Assembly: GCA_001917585.1 (NCBI GenBank)
Contig: MNEG01000043.1
Coordinates: 1-60,858, forward strand
Reading direction: 5' to 3'
Source of the DNA: Candidatus Rokubacteria bacterium 13_1_40CM_68_15
Lineage (GTDB): Bacteria; Methylomirabilota; Methylomirabilia; Rokubacteriales; CSP1-6
Length of the DNA: 60,858 nucleotides
This document shows, in pieces, positions 15,286 to 42,256 of this stretch. The notes below the pieces were generated by a model. It was not told where the DNA came from and made no database searches. It saw nothing but the letters and a program-made list of their open reading frames with translations. Position 1 is the first letter of the stretch, and each line of letters starts with the position of its first letter. Made by a program: the position numbers and the translations under genes.

Positions 15286-15369
15286 AAGCGTAAGATCGAA
15301 GGTAGCTTCTGCCGCAGCCTCAAAAAACTTTGGCCCTGACGGGCCCGCAGCTACGATTGGAGCCGCCGC

Positions 15370-16815
15370 ATGGTTGATCTCGTCCCCGCGCGTCCCGAGG
15401 CCTTCTTTGCCGATCGCTTCAACATCACCTCCTCGACCATCGATCGCCTGCTCGGCTCCGCCCTCCGCGGCAAGGTGGACGATGCCGACATCTATCTCGA
15501 GTACCGCATCACCGAGGAGCTGGTGCTGGAGGAGGGTGCCGTCAAGAAGGCGTCGCGGCACGTGAGCCAGGGGGCGGGTGTCCGCGCCCAGGCCGGCACG
15601 CGTACCGGCTACGCCCACACTGACGACATCTCGATCAAGAACCTGGAAGAGGCGGCCCGCCAGGCGCGGGCCATCGCGACCGACGCGAGCGCTTCGGCGG
15701 TCGTGGCAGTGCCGAACGGCAGACCGCACGATCTCTACGCGCTGAGCGAGACGCCGGTCGCGGCCGACCTCACGCGCAAGCTCGATCTGCTGCGCGCCGC
15801 CGATCGGGTCGCGCGCGCCGCCGATCCCCGAGTTCGTCAAGTCATCGCGAGCGTCACCAGCGAGGACGTGATCGTGTTCGTCGTGACCGCCGCCGGCTGG
15901 ACGGTCGGCGACCTCCGGCCGCTCACGCGCCTGAACGTCACCGTCATCGCGGAGGACGAGGGCAAGCGGGAGATCGGGAGCTATGGCGGCGGCGGCCGTG
16001 TGGCCTTCGACTGGTTCCTCGAGGACAACCGCTGGGAGCGCTTTGCGCGCGAGGCAGCGCGCCAGGCCGGGCTCAAGCTCGCCGCCGTCGACGCGCCGGC
16101 CGGAACGATGACGGTCGTGCTGGGTCCGGGCTGGCCGGGCATTCTCCTCCACGAAGCGATCGGCCACGGCCTCGAAGGGGACTTCAACCGCAAGGGTGTG
16201 TCGGCCTTCGCCGGCCGCCTCGGGCAGAAGGTCGCCTCCGAGCTCGTCACGGTGGTCGACGACGGAACGATCGCGAATCGCCGCGGTTCTCTGAACGTCG
16301 ACGACGAGGGCACGCCGACGTCGCGCAACGTCCTCATCTATCGCGGCGTGCTGTGCAGCTACATGCAGGACAAGCTCAACGCCCGGCTCATGGGCATGAA
16401 GGCAACCGGGAACGGACGCCGCGAGTCGTACGCCTATCCGCCCATGCCGCGCATGACGAACACGTTCATGCTGGCCGGCGAGGAGGCGCCCGAGGACATC
16501 GTGCGCTCCGTCAAGCACGGCCTCTACGCCGTCGCGTTCGGCGGCGGCCAGGTCGACATCACCAGCGGCAAGTTCGTCTTCTCGGCGAGCGAGGCCTACC
16601 TGATCGAGGACGGCCGGGTGACCGCACCGGTCAAGGGCGCGACGCTCATCGGCAATGGGCCCGACGCGCTCACGCGCGTCACCCGCGTCGGCCACGACCT
16701 GAAGCTCGACGAGGGGATCGGCACGTGTGGCAAGGACGGCCAGTCGGTCCCCGTGGGCGTCGGCCTGCCCACGATTCGCATCGACGCGATGACCGTCGGC
16801 GGGACGCAGGTGTGA
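15370..16815 (+). CDS. tldD: Metalloprotease TldD
   Basis: GWPGILLHEAIGHGLEGDFNRKG, TGNGRRESY..PMPRMTNT, CGKDGQSVPVGVGLPT. Confidence 0.95.
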   Translation: MVDLVPARPEAFFADRFNITSSTIDRLLGSALRGKVDDADIYLEYRITEELVLEEGAVKKASRHVSQGAGVRAQAGTRTGYAHTDDISIKNLEEAARQARAIATDASASAVVAVPNGRPHDLYALSETPVAADLTRKLDLLRAADRVARAADPRVRQVIASVTSEDVIVFVVTAAGWTVGDLRPLTRLNVTVIAEDEGKREIGSYGGGGRVAFDWFLEDNRWERFAREAARQAGLKLAAVDAPAGTMTVVLGPGWPGILLHEAIGHGLEGDFNRKGVSAFAGRLGQKVASELVTVVDDGTIANRRGSLNVDDEGTPTSRNVLIYRGVLCSYMQDKLNARLMGMKATGNGRRESYAYPPMPRMTNTFMLAGEEAPEDIVRSVKHGLYAVAFGGGQVDITSGKFVFSASEAYLIEDGRVTAPVKGATLIGNGPDALTRVTRVGHDLKLDEGIGTCGKDGQSVPVGVGLPTIRIDAMTVGGTQV

Positions 16816-18158
16816 GCGGAATCGACGCCGACCTCCTCGTCTCGGTTCTGAAGCGCGCGACCGGGCTCGGTGCCACGGCCGCCGACGGTTTCCTGGTCGA
16901 CGAGCGCCACTTCAGCGCCACCGTGCGGCTCGGCGAGGTCGACACGGTGACGCACTCGCACGATCAACGGCTGTCGCTGCGCGTCTTCGCCGGCCGCGCC
17001 TCCGCCGCGGCCTCGACCTCGGATCTCTCGCCCGATTCGCTCGAGCGTGTGGTGGCGGAGGCGACCCGGCTCGCCAAGATCACCGCCGAGGATCCTCACG
17101 CCGGACTTCCCGATCCGGCCGAGCTCACGACGTCGATCCCGGATCTCGATCTCGCGGACGCCGGTGGCCACGATCTGGCTCCCGAAGCCAAGATCGACAT
17201 CGCGCGCCGCGCCGAGGCCGCCGCGCTGGCCGCTGACCCGCGCGTGACGAATTCCGAGGGCGCCGAGTTCTGGGATCGCCAGGCGCGTTACGCGTACGCG
17301 ACGTCATCGGGATTCGCCGGCGGCTATCGGACGTCGAGCTTCGGGATCACGGCCTCTCCCGTGGCCGCACAGAACGGCGAGATGCAGCGCGACGCCTGGT
17401 ACACGACGGCTCGCAAGCGGGCGGCGCTCGACGATCCTGCCGCAGTCGGCCGAACCGCGGCCGCGCGTGCCGTGCGGCGGCTCGGGGCGCGGAAGGTCAA
17501 GACGACCGAGGTTCCGGTGATCTTCGATCCGGAGACCGCGGCGACGCTCGTCCGCGCGATTGCATCGGCGGCCGCGGGGCCCAGCCTCTATCGCCGGGCT
17601 TCGTTCCTGCTCGACCGGCTGGGCACGAAGATCGCGGCACCCTCGGTCACGATCGTGGACGACGGACTCCGGCCGGGTGGACTCGGGTCGCGGCCGTTCG
17701 ACGGTGAGGGATTGGCGACGCGCCGGACCGTCCTCGTCAGCGAGGGCGTCTTACAGTCGTACCTCCTCGACAGCTACAGCGCGCGCAAGCTTGGCCTGGC
17801 CTCCACGCACCATGCCGCCCGCGACGGCGCCGGCGTCACCGTGGCCACGACCAATCTCATGCTCCTGCCCGGGTCGGCCCGCCCGGAGGACTTGATCGCC
17901 TCCGTGCGCGAGGGGTTCTACGTCACCGAGCTGATCGGTTTCGGGGTCAACGGCGTCACCGGAGACTACTCGCGAGGCGCCGTCGGTCTCTGGATCGAGA
18001 ACGGCGCGTTCGCGTATCCGGTTGAGGAAGTGACGATCGCCGGCAACCTGCTCGACATGCTCGCCCGGGTGGACGGCATCGGCAACGACCTCGTGCTGCG
18101 CGATCGGACCGCCGCGCCCACCGTGAAGATCGCGCGCATGGTCGTCGCCGGCGACTAG
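16812..18158 (+). CDS. pmbA: TldE/PmbA family protein
   Basis: MQRDAWY, SRPFDGEG, GVNGVTGDYSRGA.GLWIENG..YPVEEVTIAGNL. Confidence 0.92.
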   Translation: MSGIDADLLVSVLKRATGLGATAADGFLVDERHFSATVRLGEVDTVTHSHDQRLSLRVFAGRASAAASTSDLSPDSLERVVAEATRLAKITAEDPHAGLPDPAELTTSIPDLDLADAGGHDLAPEAKIDIARRAEAAALAADPRVTNSEGAEFWDRQARYAYATSSGFAGGYRTSSFGITASPVAAQNGEMQRDAWYTTARKRAALDDPAAVGRTAAARAVRRLGARKVKTTEVPVIFDPETAATLVRAIASAAAGPSLYRRASFLLDRLGTKIAAPSVTIVDDGLRPGGLGSRPFDGEGLATRRTVLVSEGVLQSYLLDSYSARKLGLASTHHAARDGAGVTVATTNLMLLPGSARPEDLIASVREGFYVTELIGFGVNGVTGDYSRGAVGLWIENGAFAYPVEEVTIAGNLLDMLARVDGIGNDLVLRDRTAAPTVKIARMVVAGD

Positions 18159-35648: not shown

Positions 35649-36575
35649 TCAGCGGTTCAAGAACTTCCTGACGCTGCTCGCGATGCCGGCGGGATCGAGG
35701 CCGTGCTTGGCATAGAGACTCTTGGGGTCGCCCGACTCGCCGAAGCCCTGGACGCCCAGGCGCTTGTGCGGCGTCGGCAGTACCTCGGAGAGGAGCTCGG
35801 CGACGGCGCCGCCGAGCCCGCCCGCAATCGAGTGATCCTCGACGGTCACGATGTGCCCGGTCCGCCCGGCCGAGGCCACGAGCGTCTCCTCGTCGAGCGG
35901 CTTGATCGAGGATGCGTTGACGACCTCGGCCGAGATGCCGTCGGCGGCCAGCATCTTCGCCGCTGCGACGCAGTTCGCGATCGGGCCTCCCGAGCCGACG
36001 AGGGTGACGTCGACGCCGGCATTGAGCGTGAGCCAGCGGCCGAGACGGAAGCGCGAGTCGGGCGGGCACACCGGCTCCATGTTCTGACGCGTGAGTCGCA
36101 GGTAGAGCGGCCCGTCGTGCTCGATGGCGTAGGCCACGGCCTGCTTCGTCTCGTGCTCGTCGGCCGGCTGCACGATCGGAATGTTCGGCAGCGCGCGCAG
36201 ACAGGCGATGTCTTCCAGCCCCATCTGGCTGTAGCCGTCCTCGCCGATCGCGATCCCCGCGTGGGTGCCCACCAGCTTCACATTGGCGTTGGTGTAGGCG
36301 ACCGAGATGCGGATCGTCTCGAAGCGGCCGGCCAGGAAGCAGGCGAACGAGCAGACGAACGGGACCTTGCCGGCCAGCGCGAGGCCGGCGGCGATGCCGA
36401 TGGCGTTCTGCTCGGCGATGCCGACGTTGAAGGCGCGCTCCGGATACTTCTTCGCGAAGCTGACCGTCATGGTGGACTTCGACAGATCGGCGTCCACGCT
36501 GACGATGCGGTCGTCGCGGGCGCCCAGCTCGAGCAACGCTTCACCGAAGGCGGCGCGGGTCGCTTTCGCGGGCAT
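35649..36575 (-). CDS. Transketolase C-terminal subunit
   Basis: ATRAAFG, DADLSKST, GIAEQN, GEDGYSQM, EDHS..GGLG. Confidence 0.92.
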   Translation of the reverse strand: MPAKATRAAFGEALLELGARDDRIVSVDADLSKSTMTVSFAKKYPERAFNVGIAEQNAIGIAAGLALAGKVPFVCSFACFLAGRFETIRISVAYTNANVKLVGTHAGIAIGEDGYSQMGLEDIACLRALPNIPIVQPADEHETKQAVAYAIEHDGPLYLRLTRQNMEPVCPPDSRFRLGRWLTLNAGVDVTLVGSGGPIANCVAAAKMLAADGISAEVVNASSIKPLDEETLVASAGRTGHIVTVEDHSIAGGLGGAVAELLSEVLPTPHKRLGVQGFGESGDPKSLYAKHGLDPAGIASSVRKFLNR

Positions 36576-36584
36576 CGGGTCTCC

Positions 36585-37499
36585 TTACTTTTTGTCGAGG
36601 GCGCTGAGCTCGGCGACGATGGCGGCCGTCGCCCTGTCCTTGGCGAGGTAGTCGTCCCAGGCCGGGGTACTGACACCGAGCAGCTCGCGGATCGCGGTGA
36701 TGGCCTCCGCCGGCTTCGGAGCCTTGCCGTGCCACTCCGGGTTGTTCTCCATGAACGACACGCCCTTGCCCTTGACGGTGTGGGCCACGATGAACGTCGG
36801 ACCACCGGTGTGGGCCTGGGCCTGATCGAGCGCCTTGCCGATCTGATCGAAGTCGTGGCCGTCGATCTCGATCACCGGCCAGCCGAACGCCTGCCACTTC
36901 TGGACGACCGGCTCGAGGTCGAGGATCTTCGTCACGAAGTCGTCGAGCTGGACGCGGTTTTTATCGAGGATCACGGTGAGGTTGCCGACGCCATGCGCGG
37001 GCTGTCCGAGCTTCGGCCCCGCCATGGCCGCCTCCCACACCTGGCCTTCCTGGATCTCGCCGTCGCCGAGGATGCAGTACACGCGGTTCGGCTTGTCGCC
37101 GAGGCGAAAACCGAGCGCCAGCCCCAGCGAGATCGACAGGCCCTGGCCGAGCGAGCCCGTGGCCGCCTCGATGCCGGGCAACGCCGTCCGATCGGGGTGA
37201 CCCTGGAGTGAGCTGCCGAGCTTGCGCAGGGTGAGCAAGCGCTCGTCGGGAAAGTAGCCGGCGCGCGCCATCGCCGCGTACATCGCGGGCACCGCGTGGC
37301 CCTTCGAGAGGATCAGACGGTCACGCTCGGGCCAGTTCGGGCGCGCGGGATCGTGGCGTATGCGACCGAACATGATCGACACCACGAGGTCGATGACCGA
37401 CAGCGAGCCGCCGGGATGGCCGGAGCCGGCGTGCGTGAGCATGCGGATGATCTGTACGCGGCACTCACGGGCGATGGACGAAAGACGCGCGTCTGGCAT
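36585..37499 (-). CDS. Transketolase N-terminal subunit
   Basis: GSGHPGGSLS, DRLILSKGH, LQGHP, TGSLGQG, GDGEIQEG, KGKGVSFME. Confidence 0.93.
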   Translation of the reverse strand: MPDARLSSIARECRVQIIRMLTHAGSGHPGGSLSVIDLVVSIMFGRIRHDPARPNWPERDRLILSKGHAVPAMYAAMARAGYFPDERLLTLRKLGSSLQGHPDRTALPGIEAATGSLGQGLSISLGLALGFRLGDKPNRVYCILGDGEIQEGQVWEAAMAGPKLGQPAHGVGNLTVILDKNRVQLDDFVTKILDLEPVVQKWQAFGWPVIEIDGHDFDQIGKALDQAQAHTGGPTFIVAHTVKGKGVSFMENNPEWHGKAPKPAEAITAIRELLGVSTPAWDDYLAKDRATAAIVAELSALDKK

Positions 37500-39058
37500 C
37501 AGGGCAGATCCTCCATGAAACCGGCGATGGCGTCCACGCGGACTCCGGAGACGGCGATCTCCGGCGCGTAGACGACCTCGTCGGCCGCCCACACGATCGT
37601 GCCCTTCACGTCCCTGGTCACGCCGACGACGTTGTTGAGGATTTTGGCGATGTTGTCGTTGATCCGGATCACGTTCGGCCGCACGGGCTCGGCCAGCCGG
37701 CCGTCGCGGATGATATAGGAGTCCCCGACGACGGTGCAGGTGAAATCGCCCGCCCGCAGGCCGTTGATCGGATACGTGTACCAGATGCGACCGATGTAGA
37801 GCCCGTTGCCCACGTGGCGCACCAGCTCTTCGCGCGAGACCGGGTCGGCGCCTTCCACGACGACGTTCGACGCCGCGATGCTGGGCTGGTTGTCGAACTG
37901 ACGGCCCCCGCCGTCTCCGAAGCGGAATCCATTGCGTGGGCTCAGTGCGGCTTCCGCCTCACGCCCGGCCGCCCCCAGCTTGGTCGCCAGCTCGGGATCG
38001 CGGAGCAGTCGCTGGGTCTCGTACCAGTTGCTGAGGCAGCCGACGAACACACCGTCGCGGATCAGATCGGTGCGCCCCGTGGGCAAGCCCTCGCAGGTGA
38101 TGCCCTTGCTGCCCATGAAGCCAGGGTGGGCGCCGTCGTCGTAGACGTTCAGACGCGGGGAGGCGATGGCGCGACCGAGCCGGCCCAGGAACGGCGTGCT
38201 CGACGAGTAGAAGGCGCTGGCCATGCACGCCGGTACCACGAGGTTGTTGATCAGGTCGGTCACCGGCTGGCGTCCGAAGACGATCGTGTACTCGCCGGAT
38301 GGCACACGGGCGCCGCCGATGGCGGCGACGGCGTTCTGGGCCGCCTCGACCCCGGCCTCGTCGGTGAACTCGTCGAGGCGTGTGCCCGTGGACCAGCCCG
38401 AGCCCTTGGCCTGCCGCGCTTCCACCATGGCCGTGACGAACGCGGTGATCAGTGTCGATTCGTCGGTCTGCACGCGCGGCATGGCCGTCGAGATCAGGGC
38501 CACGCGCTCCTGCAACACGGTGACGTCGCCGCCGAGGATGAGACCGAGGGCGCGCAGGCCCTCGTCGCTGCCAGCCAGCTCGGCCAGACGCGACGACGCC
38601 AGGAACGTCCGCAACCCGCCGCCCACGACCCGCCAGCCGCTCTCGACCAGCGTCGCGTCGTCGAGAGCCATGAGCCGCGCATCGTGATAGTTCGTCAGCG
38701 TGCGTGGCCGCGGCGATGGCCGCGGCAGCGAGACGAACTCGGGATCGACGACGGCCCCCTGTCGCGCCTTGGCCAGCGCGCGCTCGGCGCCGCGCACGGT
38801 GAGGTCGGCCGACTCGCTGCCGAAGCCGATGCTCGCCCCGCCGTCTCGGCCCGCGAACACGACCTGAAGGCCCAGGCCGTGCGAGGCGGCCGACTTCGGC
38901 TCCTCCACGCCGTTGGACGGGATGTGCGACGTGTAGTTCAGGCGAGTGAGCAGCGTGGCGTTGGCGGCCGCGAACACTTCGACCTCGGTCACGCCCGCCT
39001 GGGCGCTGACGAACTCGAAGGCGTCCTGGGCCGCCTTCGCCAGGTCGGTGGCCGTCAC
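37499..39058 (-). CDS. Divergent TldE/PmbA-like protein
   Basis: GEYTIVFG, DDGAHPG..GSKGITCEG.PT.RTDLIRDG, GLYIGRIWYTYPING..GDF; no HExxxH. Confidence 0.82.
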   Translation of the reverse strand: MTATDLAKAAQDAFEFVSAQAGVTEVEVFAAANATLLTRLNYTSHIPSNGVEEPKSAASHGLGLQVVFAGRDGGASIGFGSESADLTVRGAERALAKARQGAVVDPEFVSLPRPSPRPRTLTNYHDARLMALDDATLVESGWRVVGGGLRTFLASSRLAELAGSDEGLRALGLILGGDVTVLQERVALISTAMPRVQTDESTLITAFVTAMVEARQAKGSGWSTGTRLDEFTDEAGVEAAQNAVAAIGGARVPSGEYTIVFGRQPVTDLINNLVVPACMASAFYSSSTPFLGRLGRAIASPRLNVYDDGAHPGFMGSKGITCEGLPTGRTDLIRDGVFVGCLSNWYETQRLLRDPELATKLGAAGREAEAALSPRNGFRFGDGGGRQFDNQPSIAASNVVVEGADPVSREELVRHVGNGLYIGRIWYTYPINGLRAGDFTCTVVGDSYIIRDGRLAEPVRPNVIRINDNIAKILNNVVGVTRDVKGTIVWAADEVVYAPEIAVSGVRVDAIAGFMEDLP

Positions 39059-39065
39059 ACGCGAC

Positions 39066-39485
39066 TCACGAGCGGGGGCCGGGCGCCTCCGTGCCCTCCA
39101 CGGGATAGCCGCGCTCGAACCAGCCGGGCAGACCCTCGTCGAGGACACGATGGTTGCGCCAGCCGCGGGCGTACATCGCGTTGCTGGCCCCCCGGGCCAG
39201 GGCGTGCGGGCAGGTTCAGTAGAAGACGACGAGGCCGGACTGGGGAATCTCCTGGGCCCGCTCGTCGACCGTCCGCAACGGAATCGATCGCGCACCCTTG
39301 ATGTGGAGCTCCCGATACTCCTGCCACGTCCTGACGTCGATGATGTCGGCCCTCTCGCCGCCGTCCAGCCGTCGCTTCAGCTCGTCGACGCCGATGAAGC
39401 TCACCGGCGCATCCGGTGGCGCGGCGGGAGCGGCGCCGAGCAGGAGGAGGGCGGAGGCGCCGACGATCATGAGAGACCGACGCAC
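39066..39485 (-). CDS. Exported rhodanese-like selenoprotein (UGA at 39216-39218 read as Sec)
   Basis: IIDVRT..EY.ELHIKGARSIP...VVFY-TGA-TCPHALA...RVLDEGLPGWFERGYPVEG. Reading through the TGA completes the rhodanese domain and ends 7 nt before the next gene. Confidence 0.85.
39184..39200 (-). promoter_or_regulatory. Candidate bacterial SECIS hairpin (rhodanese)
   Basis: CTGGCC-CGGGG-GGCCAG starting 15 nt 3' of the UGA; G-rich apical loop. Confidence 0.6.
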
Positions 39486-39486
39486 G

Positions 39487-41061
39487 TCAGCTTCCGATGA
39501 CCCGCGCCCGGCTGCGCATGGTCGGTCCTCCGTTTCCGAGCTTCTTGGTCTGCATCGGCTGGCCCTTGCCGCAGTTCGGGATCGGGTAGAGCAGGAAGTC
39601 GGAGCCGACCGCGTCGACGTTCATGAGGTAGTCCCGGCTGTCGGCGGCGATGCCACCATCACGGTAGAGGCGTCCCAGCTCGCCCTTCTCGATCTCGTAG
39701 ACGCGTCGGGCCGAGATCCGGAAGTTCTCCCTGCTCTCGGCGATCGACGGAATGCGATGGCCAGCGATGTAGTAGCCGTGCTCGACCTCGCGAACGATGT
39801 CGCGCGGGTCGCGATCTCCGCCGGCGAAGACGGTGTTCGACATCCGGATGAGCGGCACCATGGCCGGCTCCGTCGCCTTGTAGTGGCCGTTGGGCTGCCC
39901 CCCGAAGAGCGCCGCGGTCTGCCGGCTGTTCATGAAGCCGCGGAAGACACCGTCGGCGATGTGGACGACCCGCCGGGCCGGCGTTCCCTCGTGGTCGTAG
40001 CGATAGTGGCCGTAGCCGGGCAGCCCGGGGTCCGAGAACGCCGTCACCAGCGGCGACGCGATCTGCTTGCCGACCTGGTGCTCGGCGAGGCCGCTCAGAA
40101 GCCAGGAGCGGCCGGCGTACGCTGTCTCCATCTTGAGGGCGCGATCGAGCTCCACCGGATGGCCGATGATCTCGTGGGAGACGAGGGTGTTGTAGTGCGG
40201 ATCGGTGACGACCACGACCTCACGCGGGGACGTCGGCAGCGCCGGCGCCGAGCTGAGCGCGACCGCCTCGCGCGCGAGCTCCAGGCAGAATTCCGGGAAC
40301 GCCGGGAAGCGGATGAGCGGTTCGTCGACGCCGCGTTCGAGGATCTCCCAGCCCCGCTGGTGCCCGAGGACGTCGTAGAGCTCCTGGCTCACGGCACCCG
40401 ACATCCCCACCAGGGAGCAGCTGCCCTGGGTCAACGCGAACGCCTGGTCGATGAGGCTGCCTTCGGACGAGGCGAAGAGCTCGCGGGAGAGCTGGGTGAG
40501 CGTGGCGATCCAGTTGTAGGTGAGTCGCCGGTCCACCGCTGCGACTCGCCTCGAGACGTCGACGGTGTAGGCGAGGATGTCCTCGATGCGCACCGCGCGC
40601 GGATCTTTTTCGTAGACCGCGGCCACCGTGTCCTCGCGGACGTCGATCGGATGGAGCCTGGTATCGGCGAGCGCGGCGCCCAGCGGACCGAACTTCTCGC
40701 GCGCGTCCGCCTTCATCTCGGCGTTCACGAGGGCGCGCCGGTAGGCACGCTCGAGGGCGTCACGGATGACACGCGGCAGATCCTCGACGTCGGCCGCGCC
40801 GAGCGTGAGGCCGAGATAGCCGGGCGCCAGCGCGCGGTCGCCCGCCAGCACGCGGACGCCGAGGCCGAAGGCGTAGTCGTCGCTGCTCGACTTGCCGCCG
40901 CCGTTCTCGGCCGTTGCCGATTTCGCCTCGGTGATCTCGAGCCTCACGTCGGCGTAGGCGAGGTGGGGCAGGCGGCGGGCGCCGTCACGGACGATGTCGC
41001 GGACGTCCGGCTTCAGGCGGTCGATCAGCTCGACACGAACGCCGGCCCGGAGATTACTCAC
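39487..41061 (-). CDS. Divergent TldD-family metalloprotease
   Basis: YADVR, HEIIGHPVELDR (HExxxH), YDHEGTPA, PLIRMSNT, NCGKGQPMQ. Confidence 0.9.
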   Translation of the reverse strand: MSNLRAGVRVELIDRLKPDVRDIVRDGARRLPHLAYADVRLEITEAKSATAENGGGKSSSDDYAFGLGVRVLAGDRALAPGYLGLTLGAADVEDLPRVIRDALERAYRRALVNAEMKADAREKFGPLGAALADTRLHPIDVREDTVAAVYEKDPRAVRIEDILAYTVDVSRRVAAVDRRLTYNWIATLTQLSRELFASSEGSLIDQAFALTQGSCSLVGMSGAVSQELYDVLGHQRGWEILERGVDEPLIRFPAFPEFCLELAREAVALSSAPALPTSPREVVVVTDPHYNTLVSHEIIGHPVELDRALKMETAYAGRSWLLSGLAEHQVGKQIASPLVTAFSDPGLPGYGHYRYDHEGTPARRVVHIADGVFRGFMNSRQTAALFGGQPNGHYKATEPAMVPLIRMSNTVFAGGDRDPRDIVREVEHGYYIAGHRIPSIAESRENFRISARRVYEIEKGELGRLYRDGGIAADSRDYLMNVDAVGSDFLLYPIPNCGKGQPMQTKKLGNGGPTMRSRARVIGS

Positions 41062-42256
41062 AGACGAACGGCTCCACCGTCACCGCGTCACCAGCGGCCA
41101 CGTCGCCACGGTCCTCCTCCAGCACGATCAGACAGTTGCCGGTGACCATCGACGAGAGGATGCCGGAGCCCTGCGGCCCCGTCGTGCGGACTTCCCATCC
41201 GCCGTCGGCGTGCTTGAGGACGCCGCGCTTGAACTCCCGCCGTCCCGTCTTCTTGCGCATCGGCTCCATCGCGCGCGCCTGCCAGGACTCCGGGAAGAGG
41301 CGGCGGCGGCCGGCCAGCTTGAAGAGCGCCGGCCGCACGAAGAGCAGGAACGTCAGCGACGAGGCCACGGGGTTGCCGGGCAGACCGAAGAAATGCGCGT
41401 CGCCGATCCGACCGACGGCCAGCGGCCGTCCCGGCTGCATGGCGACCTGCCAGAAGTCGATCCCGCCGATCTCGCCGAGCACGGCCTTGACCAGATCGTA
41501 GATGCCCACCGAGACGCCGCCGGACGTCATGACGACGTCGGCGATCCGGCTCGCCTCTAGCAGTTGGGCACGCAGGACTTCGCGCTGGTCGGGGACGATC
41601 CCGAAGTCGGTGACGCTTCCACCGCACTGCTCCACGAAGCCGCGCAGCGTGAACCGATTGGCGTCGTAGATCTGGCCCGGCTTGCGGGGCGTTCCTGGCT
41701 CGGCCACCTCGTCACCGGTGGAGAGCAGGGCGACACGCGGGCGCTGACTGACGAGCACCTGGGTGTGTCCCAGCGACGCCAGCAATCCCAGCTCTTGCGG
41801 GCGGAGCACGCTGCCACCGGGGATGACGACGGTGCCGGCCATCACGTCTTCGCCGCGCCGGCGCACGTTGGTGGAGCGCTCGATGGGCCCGATGCGCACG
41901 CGCGGTCCGCTGCGCTCGACCTGCTCTTGCGGATACACCGTGTCGGCGCCGGCCGGAATGGGCGCGCCGGTCATGATGCGCACGGCCTGCCCGGCGGCGA
42001 GCGCGCCGACAAACACGGCGCCGGCGGGGAGATCGGCGACGACGGTCAGCTCGCGCAAGCCGCTCGCGGGAATGTCGGCGGCGACGACCGCGTAACCGTC
42101 GACGGCGGAGTTGTCGGTCGGCGGCACGTCGAAGGGCGCGCGCGCGTTCTCGACGAGCACACGACCGAGCGCGGCGCTGAGAGGAAGGATTTCCGGGGCG
42201 GTATTGCGATCGATCTGGGCGAGGATGCGATTTTGCCCATCCCGCACCGAAATCAT
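41054..42256 (-). CDS. moeA: Molybdopterin molybdenumtransferase
   Basis: DNSAVDGYA, IMTGAPIP.GAD, STGDE, TSGGVSVG, QPGRP, LPGNPV, QGSGILSSM. Confidence 0.95.
   Translation of the reverse strand: MISVRDGQNRILAQIDRNTAPEILPLSAALGRVLVENARAPFDVPPTDNSAVDGYAVVAADIPASGLRELTVVADLPAGAVFVGALAAGQAVRIMTGAPIPAGADTVYPQEQVERSGPRVRIGPIERSTNVRRRGEDVMAGTVVIPGGSVLRPQELGLLASLGHTQVLVSQRPRVALLSTGDEVAEPGTPRKPGQIYDANRFTLRGFVEQCGGSVTDFGIVPDQREVLRAQLLEASRIADVVMTSGGVSVGIYDLVKAVLGEIGGIDFWQVAMQPGRPLAVGRIGDAHFFGLPGNPVASSLTFLLFVRPALFKLAGRRRLFPESWQARAMEPMRKKTGRREFKRGVLKHADGGWEVRTTGPQGSGILSSMVTGNCLIVLEEDRGDVAAGDAVTVEPFVCE

Follow-up and report, generated by a model that had tools for sequence, protein, structure and literature searches.

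Between the genes for a divergent TldD-like metallopeptidase (tldD2) and its PmbA/TldE-like partner (pmbA2), Candidatus Rokubacteria bacterium 13_1_40CM_68_15 harbours a short open reading frame (ORF) that breaks off at a TGA triplet in the middle of a rhodanese domain. The locus belongs to contig MNEG01000043.1 of assembly GCA_001917585.1, whose 60,858 nucleotides constitute the whole stretch of DNA analysed here, termed the window. Two questions arise: does the TGA specify selenocysteine (Sec, U), and does a rhodanese in such a position work together with the protease pair that flanks its gene? The joint reading favoured below is that of an apparently exported, single-domain Sec-rhodanese, whose gene is probably an insertion into the operon and not part of an obligate module for proteolysis and sulfur or selenium transfer.

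A rhodanese gene that continues past a TGA

On the reverse strand, an ORF of 89 codons starts with GTG at 39485 and ends at the TGA at 39218–39216. The same frame runs on to a second TGA at 39068–39066, and the resulting protein, with the first TGA rendered as U at residue 90 of 139, passes from ...GLVVFY through U-TCPH to a terminal ...PGPRS. The rhodanese profile PF00581 spans the TGA: it covers residues 33–123 with an E value of 1.2e-14 and a score of 55 bits (cut-off 22.2), corresponding to profile positions 2–100 of 102, and this match is obtained only when the TGA is read through. The loop motif is Y-U-T-C-P-H, with Sec in place of the canonical catalytic Cys. An earlier note on the locus, made from the sequence alone and referred to here as the original prediction, had proposed the read-through frame, the second half of a rhodanese domain within it and a YUTCP motif at the catalytic Cys; translation and the domain match across the TGA bear out all three. 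Its statements on the distances between genes and on a hairpin 15 nt past the TGA are likewise accurate.

It is well supported that the 89-residue ORF is the front part of a 139-residue single-domain Sec-rhodanese gene, mis-annotated as truncated. In public collections the gene is represented by ‘rhodanese-like’ entries of 84–91 residues. Read-through gives back a complete enzyme where the annotation has a fragment, and selenoproteome counts for Rokubacteria are too low wherever this Sec-rhodanese is overlooked.

Evidence that the TGA encodes selenocysteine

On the strength of sequence comparisons, the UGA at 39218–39216 is very probably decoded as Sec. The presence of a Sec machinery elsewhere in the genome had been named as a check by the original prediction, and selA, selB, selC and selD are all present. 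In this genome (G000; 174 contigs, 84% complete) selC scores 69.7 bits, selA 598.7, selB 366.4 and selD 344.8, each above its curated cut-off. Among relatives, selA is present in 36 of 41 genomes; three genomes carry the TGA-containing rhodanese without a selA match, two of them with a Sec-type selD (G008, G010) and one with selB (G023).

Homologues point to the same codon. A protein search covered 5.8 billion proteins, with 631 of 768 candidates matched; 114 of the best 120 matches are ORFs of 84–91 residues. Twelve of these best 120 homologues were aligned: nine, short or N-terminally extended, all stop at ...VV[F/L]Y, at the same TGA, and two full-length proteins, P0004 (FYCTCPH) and P0009 (FYCACPH), carry Cys where the TGA stands, the alignment of Cys with TGA that had been proposed as a check. 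Such Cys forms are rare, with 0 of 78 species-representative loci having Cys at the Sec codon. One observation weighs against Sec: P0003, a full-length homologue encoded on an 836-nt metagenome contig, has Arg at this position (FYRTCP). The Arg was seen once; either a change from TGA to CGA or an error could account for it.

The triplet itself is shared across genomes. In 41 related genomes, all 24 best-matching places hold an in-frame TGA, and Y-TGA-[T/A/S]-C-P-H recurs in each of 23 relatives' loci (L018–L040), or 21 of 21 when two unpublished genomes are set aside. A scan of one genome per species found TGA in 78 of 78 loci, 74 recognized by pattern and four by eye, the latter being LAVFY-TGA-[T/G]CPH variants. 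By label, nearly all 78 loci come from Candidatus Rokuibacteriota/Methylomirabilota metagenome-assembled genomes (MAGs), while for three the label is Binatia, Nitrospinota or Deltaproteobacteria.

Conservation extends beyond the codon. In a 22-row protein alignment of rhodanese orthologues, Y89 and U90 are invariant, as are 13 columns past the TGA, including C92, P93, H94, A100, G108, R110, N111, L115, E117, G118, G121 and W122. Over the 39 codons after the TGA, the ratio of nonsynonymous to synonymous differences (pN/pS; 190 pairs from 20 sequences, with L027, L032 and L037 left out) is 0.52 in frame, whereas the two alternative frames give 1.14 and 1.78. Judged from these alignments, the frame downstream of the TGA is under purifying selection.

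Reads with TGC or TGT at this codon had been named as evidence that would tell against Sec. In soil metagenome contigs from four runs of four studies, no alternative letter at a frequency of 10% or more occurs there; this lends weak support to TGA because contigs drop rare variants, and the one contig shown to span the codon is X2 (350 nt, 38900–39249). Over 38900–39600, other letters are listed only at 39352 and 39535. No RNA run was found to contain the segment 37499–42256.

That the TGA is an ordinary stop, leaving a truncated 89-residue fragment, a pseudogene or a sequencing error, is very improbable: public annotations do call the 84–91-residue ORF and the overall folding energy downstream is unexceptional, but the triplet is shared by all 78 loci and unvaried at the 10% level in the soil contigs, the selected frame behind it holds half of the rhodanese domain, a fragment of 89 residues would be devoid of the active-site loop and two helices, and TGA also serves as a stop here, for instance as the terminator of the rhodanese gene itself.

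Two side observations concern the machinery and the soil data. The selC, selA and selB genes of G000 lie together on contig C90 (9992–14835), and its selD (C93:7390–8334, +) has one in-frame TGA, making it a Sec-type SelD and itself a selenoprotein. The summed contig depth of the soil runs peaks at 39188–39235, reaching 70–290 versus 4–12 on either side; the peak overlies the Sec codon, the active-site loop and the hairpin described below, and many related strains appear to share this segment nearly letter for letter.

A candidate SECIS hairpin downstream of the TGA

Fifteen nucleotides after the UGA begins the hairpin CUGGCCC-GGG-GGGCCAG (39200–39184), a probable candidate, from its position and pairing, for the selenocysteine insertion sequence (SECIS) to which SelB would bind. 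Pair counts over 23 sequences reveal that three of the five inner stem pairs are invariant. At the innermost position, 15 sequences have C-G, seven have a compensatory A-U and one is unpaired; the seven A-U sequences belong to a family denoted f4 (the window belongs to family f1), in which the encoded residues are HHLASLAY versus HALARGAS and the stem is nonetheless kept. Paired cells amount to 83.9%, versus 27–56% with slid partners, and none of 500 shufflings of the columns gave a covariation score as high as the one observed.

Several results weigh against this assignment. Of the 23 sequences, 5 do not form one of the G-C pairs, and no more than 12–13 form the two outermost pairs; RNAalifold reduces the consensus to a core of 3 bp. 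Folding of the 86 nt that follow the UGA is not unusually stable (z +1.27, with 184 of 200 shuffles at least as stable). In addition, the hairpin is embedded in conserved coding sequence, which means that the protein accounts for some of its constancy.

A control was based on hairpins with a stem of at least 7 bp and a G in the loop, located 11–18 nt after a triplet. Such a hairpin follows all five in-frame TGAs of candidate selenoprotein genes in G000, 12–15 nt after the UGA; these are the TGAs of the window rhodanese, selD and three further rhodanese genes. The background frequency is 3.4% for 20,000 random positions and 3.6% for 100,394 TGA triplets. An Rfam scan of 39000–39300 (E <= 10) returned no SECIS family and only mir-638 and WT1-AS_4, at chance level and on the + strand; this null is not counted against a SECIS, as Rfam may not model bacterial SECIS elements of such a kind.

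Fold, active site and N-terminus

An AlphaFold2 model built on the 22-row alignment has a mean predicted local distance difference test (pLDDT) score of 86, and blocks over residues 31–130 score 87–98. The model is an alpha/beta fold in which a strand (residues 85–89) leads into a loop (90–94) followed by a helix (95–106). The best Foldseek matches in the PDB are single-domain rhodaneses, with 3nhv first (E 2e-9) and 6mxv also among them. In the profile alignment U90 coincides with the loop Cys of 6mxv, 3tp9, 6pfz and domain 2 of 1yt8; in the first three this counterpart is the Cys of a ‘YC’ loop. It is strongly supported that Sec90 ends the central beta-strand and lies in the active-site loop, where other rhodaneses carry the persulfide Cys.

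The N-terminus, MRRSLMIVGASALLLLGAAPAAPPDAP, resembles a signal peptide by inspection, as had been proposed, and the succession of basic, hydrophobic and Ala/Pro-rich segments recurs in every orthologue, divergent sequences included (in f4, ...LLPAAARVGSAQQ). The pLDDT is ~50 for residues 1–20, and confidence is low for the first 28 residues. This segment is predicted by inspection to be a signal peptide or an N-in anchor, in which case the rhodanese domain should face the periplasm. Exported by way of this signal or anchor, the protein would act as a periplasmic sulfane-sulfur or thiol-redox enzyme; the invariant Cys92 could serve as the resolving thiol, and the enzyme may cycle through a selenenyl-sulfide or a seleno-persulfide.

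Comparison with known rhodaneses

The accessible part of a 2026 review lists five forms of Sec-rhodanese, namely UxxS, UxxG, CxU (NF041203), a second UxxG and UxxxxU (TsoB), and describes forms 1, 2, 4 and 5 as predicted by comparative genomics, none being biochemically characterized (PMC13188914); three forms appear in the corresponding part of a 2022 review (PMC9312934). The best NCBIfam match of the window rhodanese is the third form, rhodanese_LYCAU (NF041203; E 1.8e-13, residues 25–130). It resembles LYCAU in being a selenoprotein with one small rhodanese domain, in whose active-site loop a Cys and a Sec are spaced two residues apart. However, its score of 50.3 bits lies below the membership cut-off of 115, and its motif is U-x-C, C-x-U being absent. 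The roles are reversed: in LYCAU the Cys is catalytic and Sec follows, whereas here Sec is catalytic and Cys follows (Y-U-x-C-P-H). U-x-C-P-H thus mirrors C-x-U, and the two offer a natural pair for studying the role of Sec in the catalytic versus the resolving position. With forms 1, 2 and 4 and with TsoB (form 5), the window rhodanese shares PF00581 and a Sec in the active-site region; as far as these forms are described in the accessible text, it is set apart from them by motif only, U-[T/A/S/G]-C-P-H, readable as UxxP or UxC (PMC13188914). That it is a U-x-C variant within the known Sec-rhodanese kind, a genuine and widely mis-annotated selenoprotein, is well supported.

Whether this variant deserves a rank of its own is more doubtful. 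The portions of the literature that were accessible, including PMC13188914, PMC9312934, PMC13326102 and PMC12013277, mention no U-x-C rhodanese and none between tldD and pmbA, and a groundwater-MAG study may list the gene. A cluster look-up with ten homologues returned two accessions, neither a representative of the review's Sec-rhodanese forms. A tentative reading, which we consider rather less probable than its negation, is that of an uncatalogued sixth Sec-rhodanese form (Y-U-x-C-P-H), near-confined to Rokubacteria/Methylomirabilota, periplasmic and operating with a Sec90–Cys92 selenenyl-sulfide couple. If it were true, the rhodanese fold would have been turned into a thiol/persulfide oxidoreductase, and the UGA could also make the expression of pmbA2 and transketolase selenium-dependent.

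The periplasmic or membrane single-domain rhodaneses of Escherichia coli, represented by PspE (2jtq), YgaP (5hbl) and the GlpE type (1gmx), have the same fold and size, are all matched by the family profile and bear a single catalytic residue at the corresponding place in the loop. That residue is Cys in these proteins, in a CxxGxR-type loop devoid of a second Cys, whereas the window rhodanese has UxCPH with a helix directly after it. PspE and YgaP presumably share with it an N-terminal export or anchor segment.

The same genome holds further genes of this kind. A true LYCAU-type gene is located at C64:104–394 (−), reading ...LVAYCT-TGA-PDEATSA, and two more Sec-rhodaneses have a CxxxxU arrangement: C167:6993–7319 (−), with YCGGPN-U, and C57:4618–4884 (+), with YCYDYY-U. 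Each of the three has one in-frame TGA with a GC hairpin 12–14 nt after it. By prediction, then, G000 encodes at least four Sec-rhodaneses. This multiplicity agrees with the accessible account of a Methylomirabilota MAG as the holder of the largest predicted bacterial selenoproteome, with 63 selenoprotein genes in the groundwater-MAG study (PMC13188914 ref. 66).

The operon and its protease genes

The rhodanese gene stands in a tightly packed row of genes (Table 1). The moeA and tldD2 genes overlap by 8 nt, and 1 nt separates the tldD2 stop from the rhodanese GTG. The gap before pmbA2, 157 nt as annotated, is only 7 nt if the TGA is read through. One base, in TGATG, belongs both to the stop of pmbA2 and to the ATG of tktN (37499; junction CCCTGATGCC), and the tktN/tktC junction consists of TAA, GGAG and then ATG. 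Most likely the rhodanese is co-transcribed in an operon moeA-tldD2-rhd-pmbA2-tktN-tktC; junctions and domain matches agree with the operon that the original prediction had described.

Table 1. Features of the rhodanese locus (positions of the window)
Feature	Position	Strand	Basis or remarks
moeA, molybdopterin molybdenumtransferase, first operon gene	41054..42256	−	MoeA_N, MoCF_biosynth, MoeA_C
tldD2, divergent TldD-like metallopeptidase, 524 aa	39487..41061	−	PF19289 122.8 bits; HEIIGH at residue 296
Full rhodanese selenoprotein gene	39066..39485	−	139 aa; translation with TGA=U and PF00581
Signal-peptide-like or membrane-anchor segment, residues 1 to ~28	39402..39485	−	Inspection only
In-frame TGA, predicted Sec codon (U90)	39216..39218	−	Catalytic-Cys position of rhodanese loop
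SECIS-like hairpin	39184..39200	−	7-bp GC stem 39200–39194/39190–39184, GGG loop 39193–39191
pmbA2, divergent PmbA/TldE-like partner, 519 aa	37499..39058	−	PF19289 126.9 bits; no HExxxH
tktN, transketolase N-terminal subunit	36585..37499	−	Transketolase_N 170.5 bits
tktC, transketolase C-terminal subunit	35649..36575	−	Transket_pyr and Transketolase_C

As in the E. coli TldD/TldE (PmbA) pair, the genes flanking the rhodanese are adjacent paralogues, both with a PmbA_TldD_3rd domain and with HExxxH in the TldD subunit only. Unlike the E. coli proteins, they stay far below the NCBIfam equivalog cut-offs, with 77.4 bits versus 513 for TldD and 33.6 versus 438 for PmbA; against the archaeal TldD family NF040952, tldD2 scores 121.9 bits, with a cut-off of 635. 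A canonical, higher-scoring TldD/PmbA pair is located 20 kb away in the same window, at ~15340–18156 (+), with PmbA_TldD_3rd scores of 229 and 253 bits and HEAIGH in its TldD, and for this reason the rhodanese-flanking pair represents a second, divergent TldD/PmbA, as had been suggested. All four PmbA_TldD_3rd matches of the genome fall in this one window.

Is the rhodanese tied to TldD2 and PmbA2?

The original prediction saw in this arrangement an undescribed module linking TldD/PmbA proteolysis with sulfur/selenium transfer. In its strict form, with the rhodanese as a working partner of TldD2/PmbA2, a sulfur/selenium transferase coupled to the proteolytic maturation of a peptide or cofactor, this appears improbable. 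The gene order does speak for it. The full order moeA-tldD2-rhd-pmbA2-tktN-tktC is found in all 11 f1 loci with long flanks (in one, the rhodanese was detected by tblastn only), with the 1-nt and 7-nt spacers on the two sides of the rhodanese in these loci examined in detail, and tldD2-rhd-pmbA2 lies inside 2.5-kb flanks in 57 of the 78 species-representative loci. In a phylum sample of 151 genomes, 94 of them in f1 and G000 included, the rhodanese directly follows tldD2 in ~61, all of f1 (~61/94), a count made by hand comparison of coordinates and including three unpublished genomes; a frequency of this order weighs against a mere insertion. The N-terminal stretch GAAPAAPPDAPV is, moreover, unusually conserved within f1 for a signal peptide.

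The wider distribution of the three genes argues the other way. A tldD2 orthologue is present in 136 of the 151 genomes, in families f1 and f4 tldD2 is preceded by moeA, and pmbA2 adjoins tldD2 in every locus examined; the protease pair is conserved across the class and predates the more narrowly distributed rhodanese insertion. The pair is adjacent without a rhodanese in f7 (two loci), f8 (two), f10 (one), f11 (one) and f4 (three), and the f1 genera G006, G016, G019 and G024 have moeA-tldD2-pmbA2 without it, with no rhodanese match genome-wide at E <= 1e-10. In rhodanese-free loci tldD2 and pmbA2 are separated by 8–40 nt. The synteny that had been put forward as a check is retained in part: the order is kept in the majority of species loci and is absent from the loci examined in five other families and from four f1 genera.

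In a 27-row TldD2 tree, well-supported clades (100/98, 95/83 and 99/97) place three of the four rhodanese-free rows among rhodanese-bearing ones, and the fourth falls in an unresolved fork with rhodanese-bearing neighbours; this nesting points to repeated loss. In G024 the site is occupied by other genes: the tldD2-pmbA2 spacer (L069, G024:C9 4382–6038) holds two unrelated ORFs of 118 and 227 residues, which by eye we take to be a retropepsin-type aspartic protease-like and a TPR-like (tetratricopeptide repeat) protein, respectively. The spacer may be permissive for insertions. A lost Sec trait was considered as the cause of the rhodanese-free genomes and rejected, as G006, G016, G019 and G024 all have selA.

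The converse state exists as well. In three genomes of genus g38 (L082, L083, L085) the two protease genes are missing and the operon reads moeA-rhd(Sec)-tktN-tktC, with ~200 nt between rhodanese and tktN; no tldD2 match at E <= 1e-30 was found in any of five g38 genomes. The genes around this reduced operon are still syntenic with the window. One contig of G017 carries moeA-rhd only. In f4, finally, both are present but unlinked: the Sec-rhodanese is hundreds of kb from tldD2 (for example in G036 and G034) and sits between a HAMP-adenylate-cyclase gene and, directly downstream, a Fur-family gene. Two further points count against a partnership: the rhodanese looks exported, whereas TldD2 and PmbA2 are by inspection devoid of a signal peptide, and a literature search for TldD together with rhodanese gave two hits, both unrelated.

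All three states thus exist: some lineages have only the protease pair, some only the rhodanese, and some have both at separate loci. The genes separate freely, which does not fit an obligate tldD-rhodanese-pmbA module. The position of the rhodanese between tldD2 and pmbA2 looks like an insertion specific to one Rokubacteria family that was lost again several times. In the simplest history the tldD2-pmbA2 pair would be ancestral, an older exported Sec-rhodanese would have entered between the two genes early in f1, and later the rhodanese or the protease pair may have been lost independently in different lineages. A facultative functional link, or co-regulation through the shared transcript, is possible. 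The case counsels caution in deducing function from gene order: a tight wedge between two subunit genes, present in dozens of genera, is still separable.

A selenium gate or a molybdenum link

Compatible with the insertion reading, although unlikely, is the idea, akin to the polarity raised in the original prediction, that the UGA acts as a selenium-dependent gate on the output of pmbA2 and transketolase. Failure of Sec insertion would stop translation 157 nt before pmbA2 and uncouple the translation and perhaps, through polarity, the transcription of pmbA2 and the transketolase genes. Translational coupling is plausible, as the true stop is 7 nt from the pmbA2 start and other junctions are 1-nt or overlapping, and most f1 genera have kept the insertion. 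On the other hand, the rhodanese-free lineages, with their 8–40 nt between tldD2 and pmbA2, evidently manage without a gate, and g38 has the rhodanese with ~200 nt before tktN.

A link to molybdenum cofactor synthesis by way of moeA was also considered: in NCBIfam the rhodanese domains of MoeZ and MoeB match the protein second best, and moeA is the gene immediately upstream of the rhodanese in g38 and on the G017 contig. It was set aside as unlikely, as the protein looks exported and f4 has moeA-tldD2-pmbA2 without the rhodanese.

The f4 neighbourhood

The surroundings of the f4 gene offer a hint of a different kind. At locus L060 (G040:C10:503000–521000), within 8 kb of the Sec-rhodanese, are genes for a CopD-cytochrome c fusion, CusF, a Cys-rhodanese paralogue and a cupin, together with an MbnB/TglH/ChrH enzyme and its DUF2063 partner. 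The MbnB/DUF2063 pair may belong to a copper-related system for a ribosomally synthesized and post-translationally modified peptide (RiPP). This neighbourhood hints that the Sec-rhodanese family may act in metal or oxidative stress.

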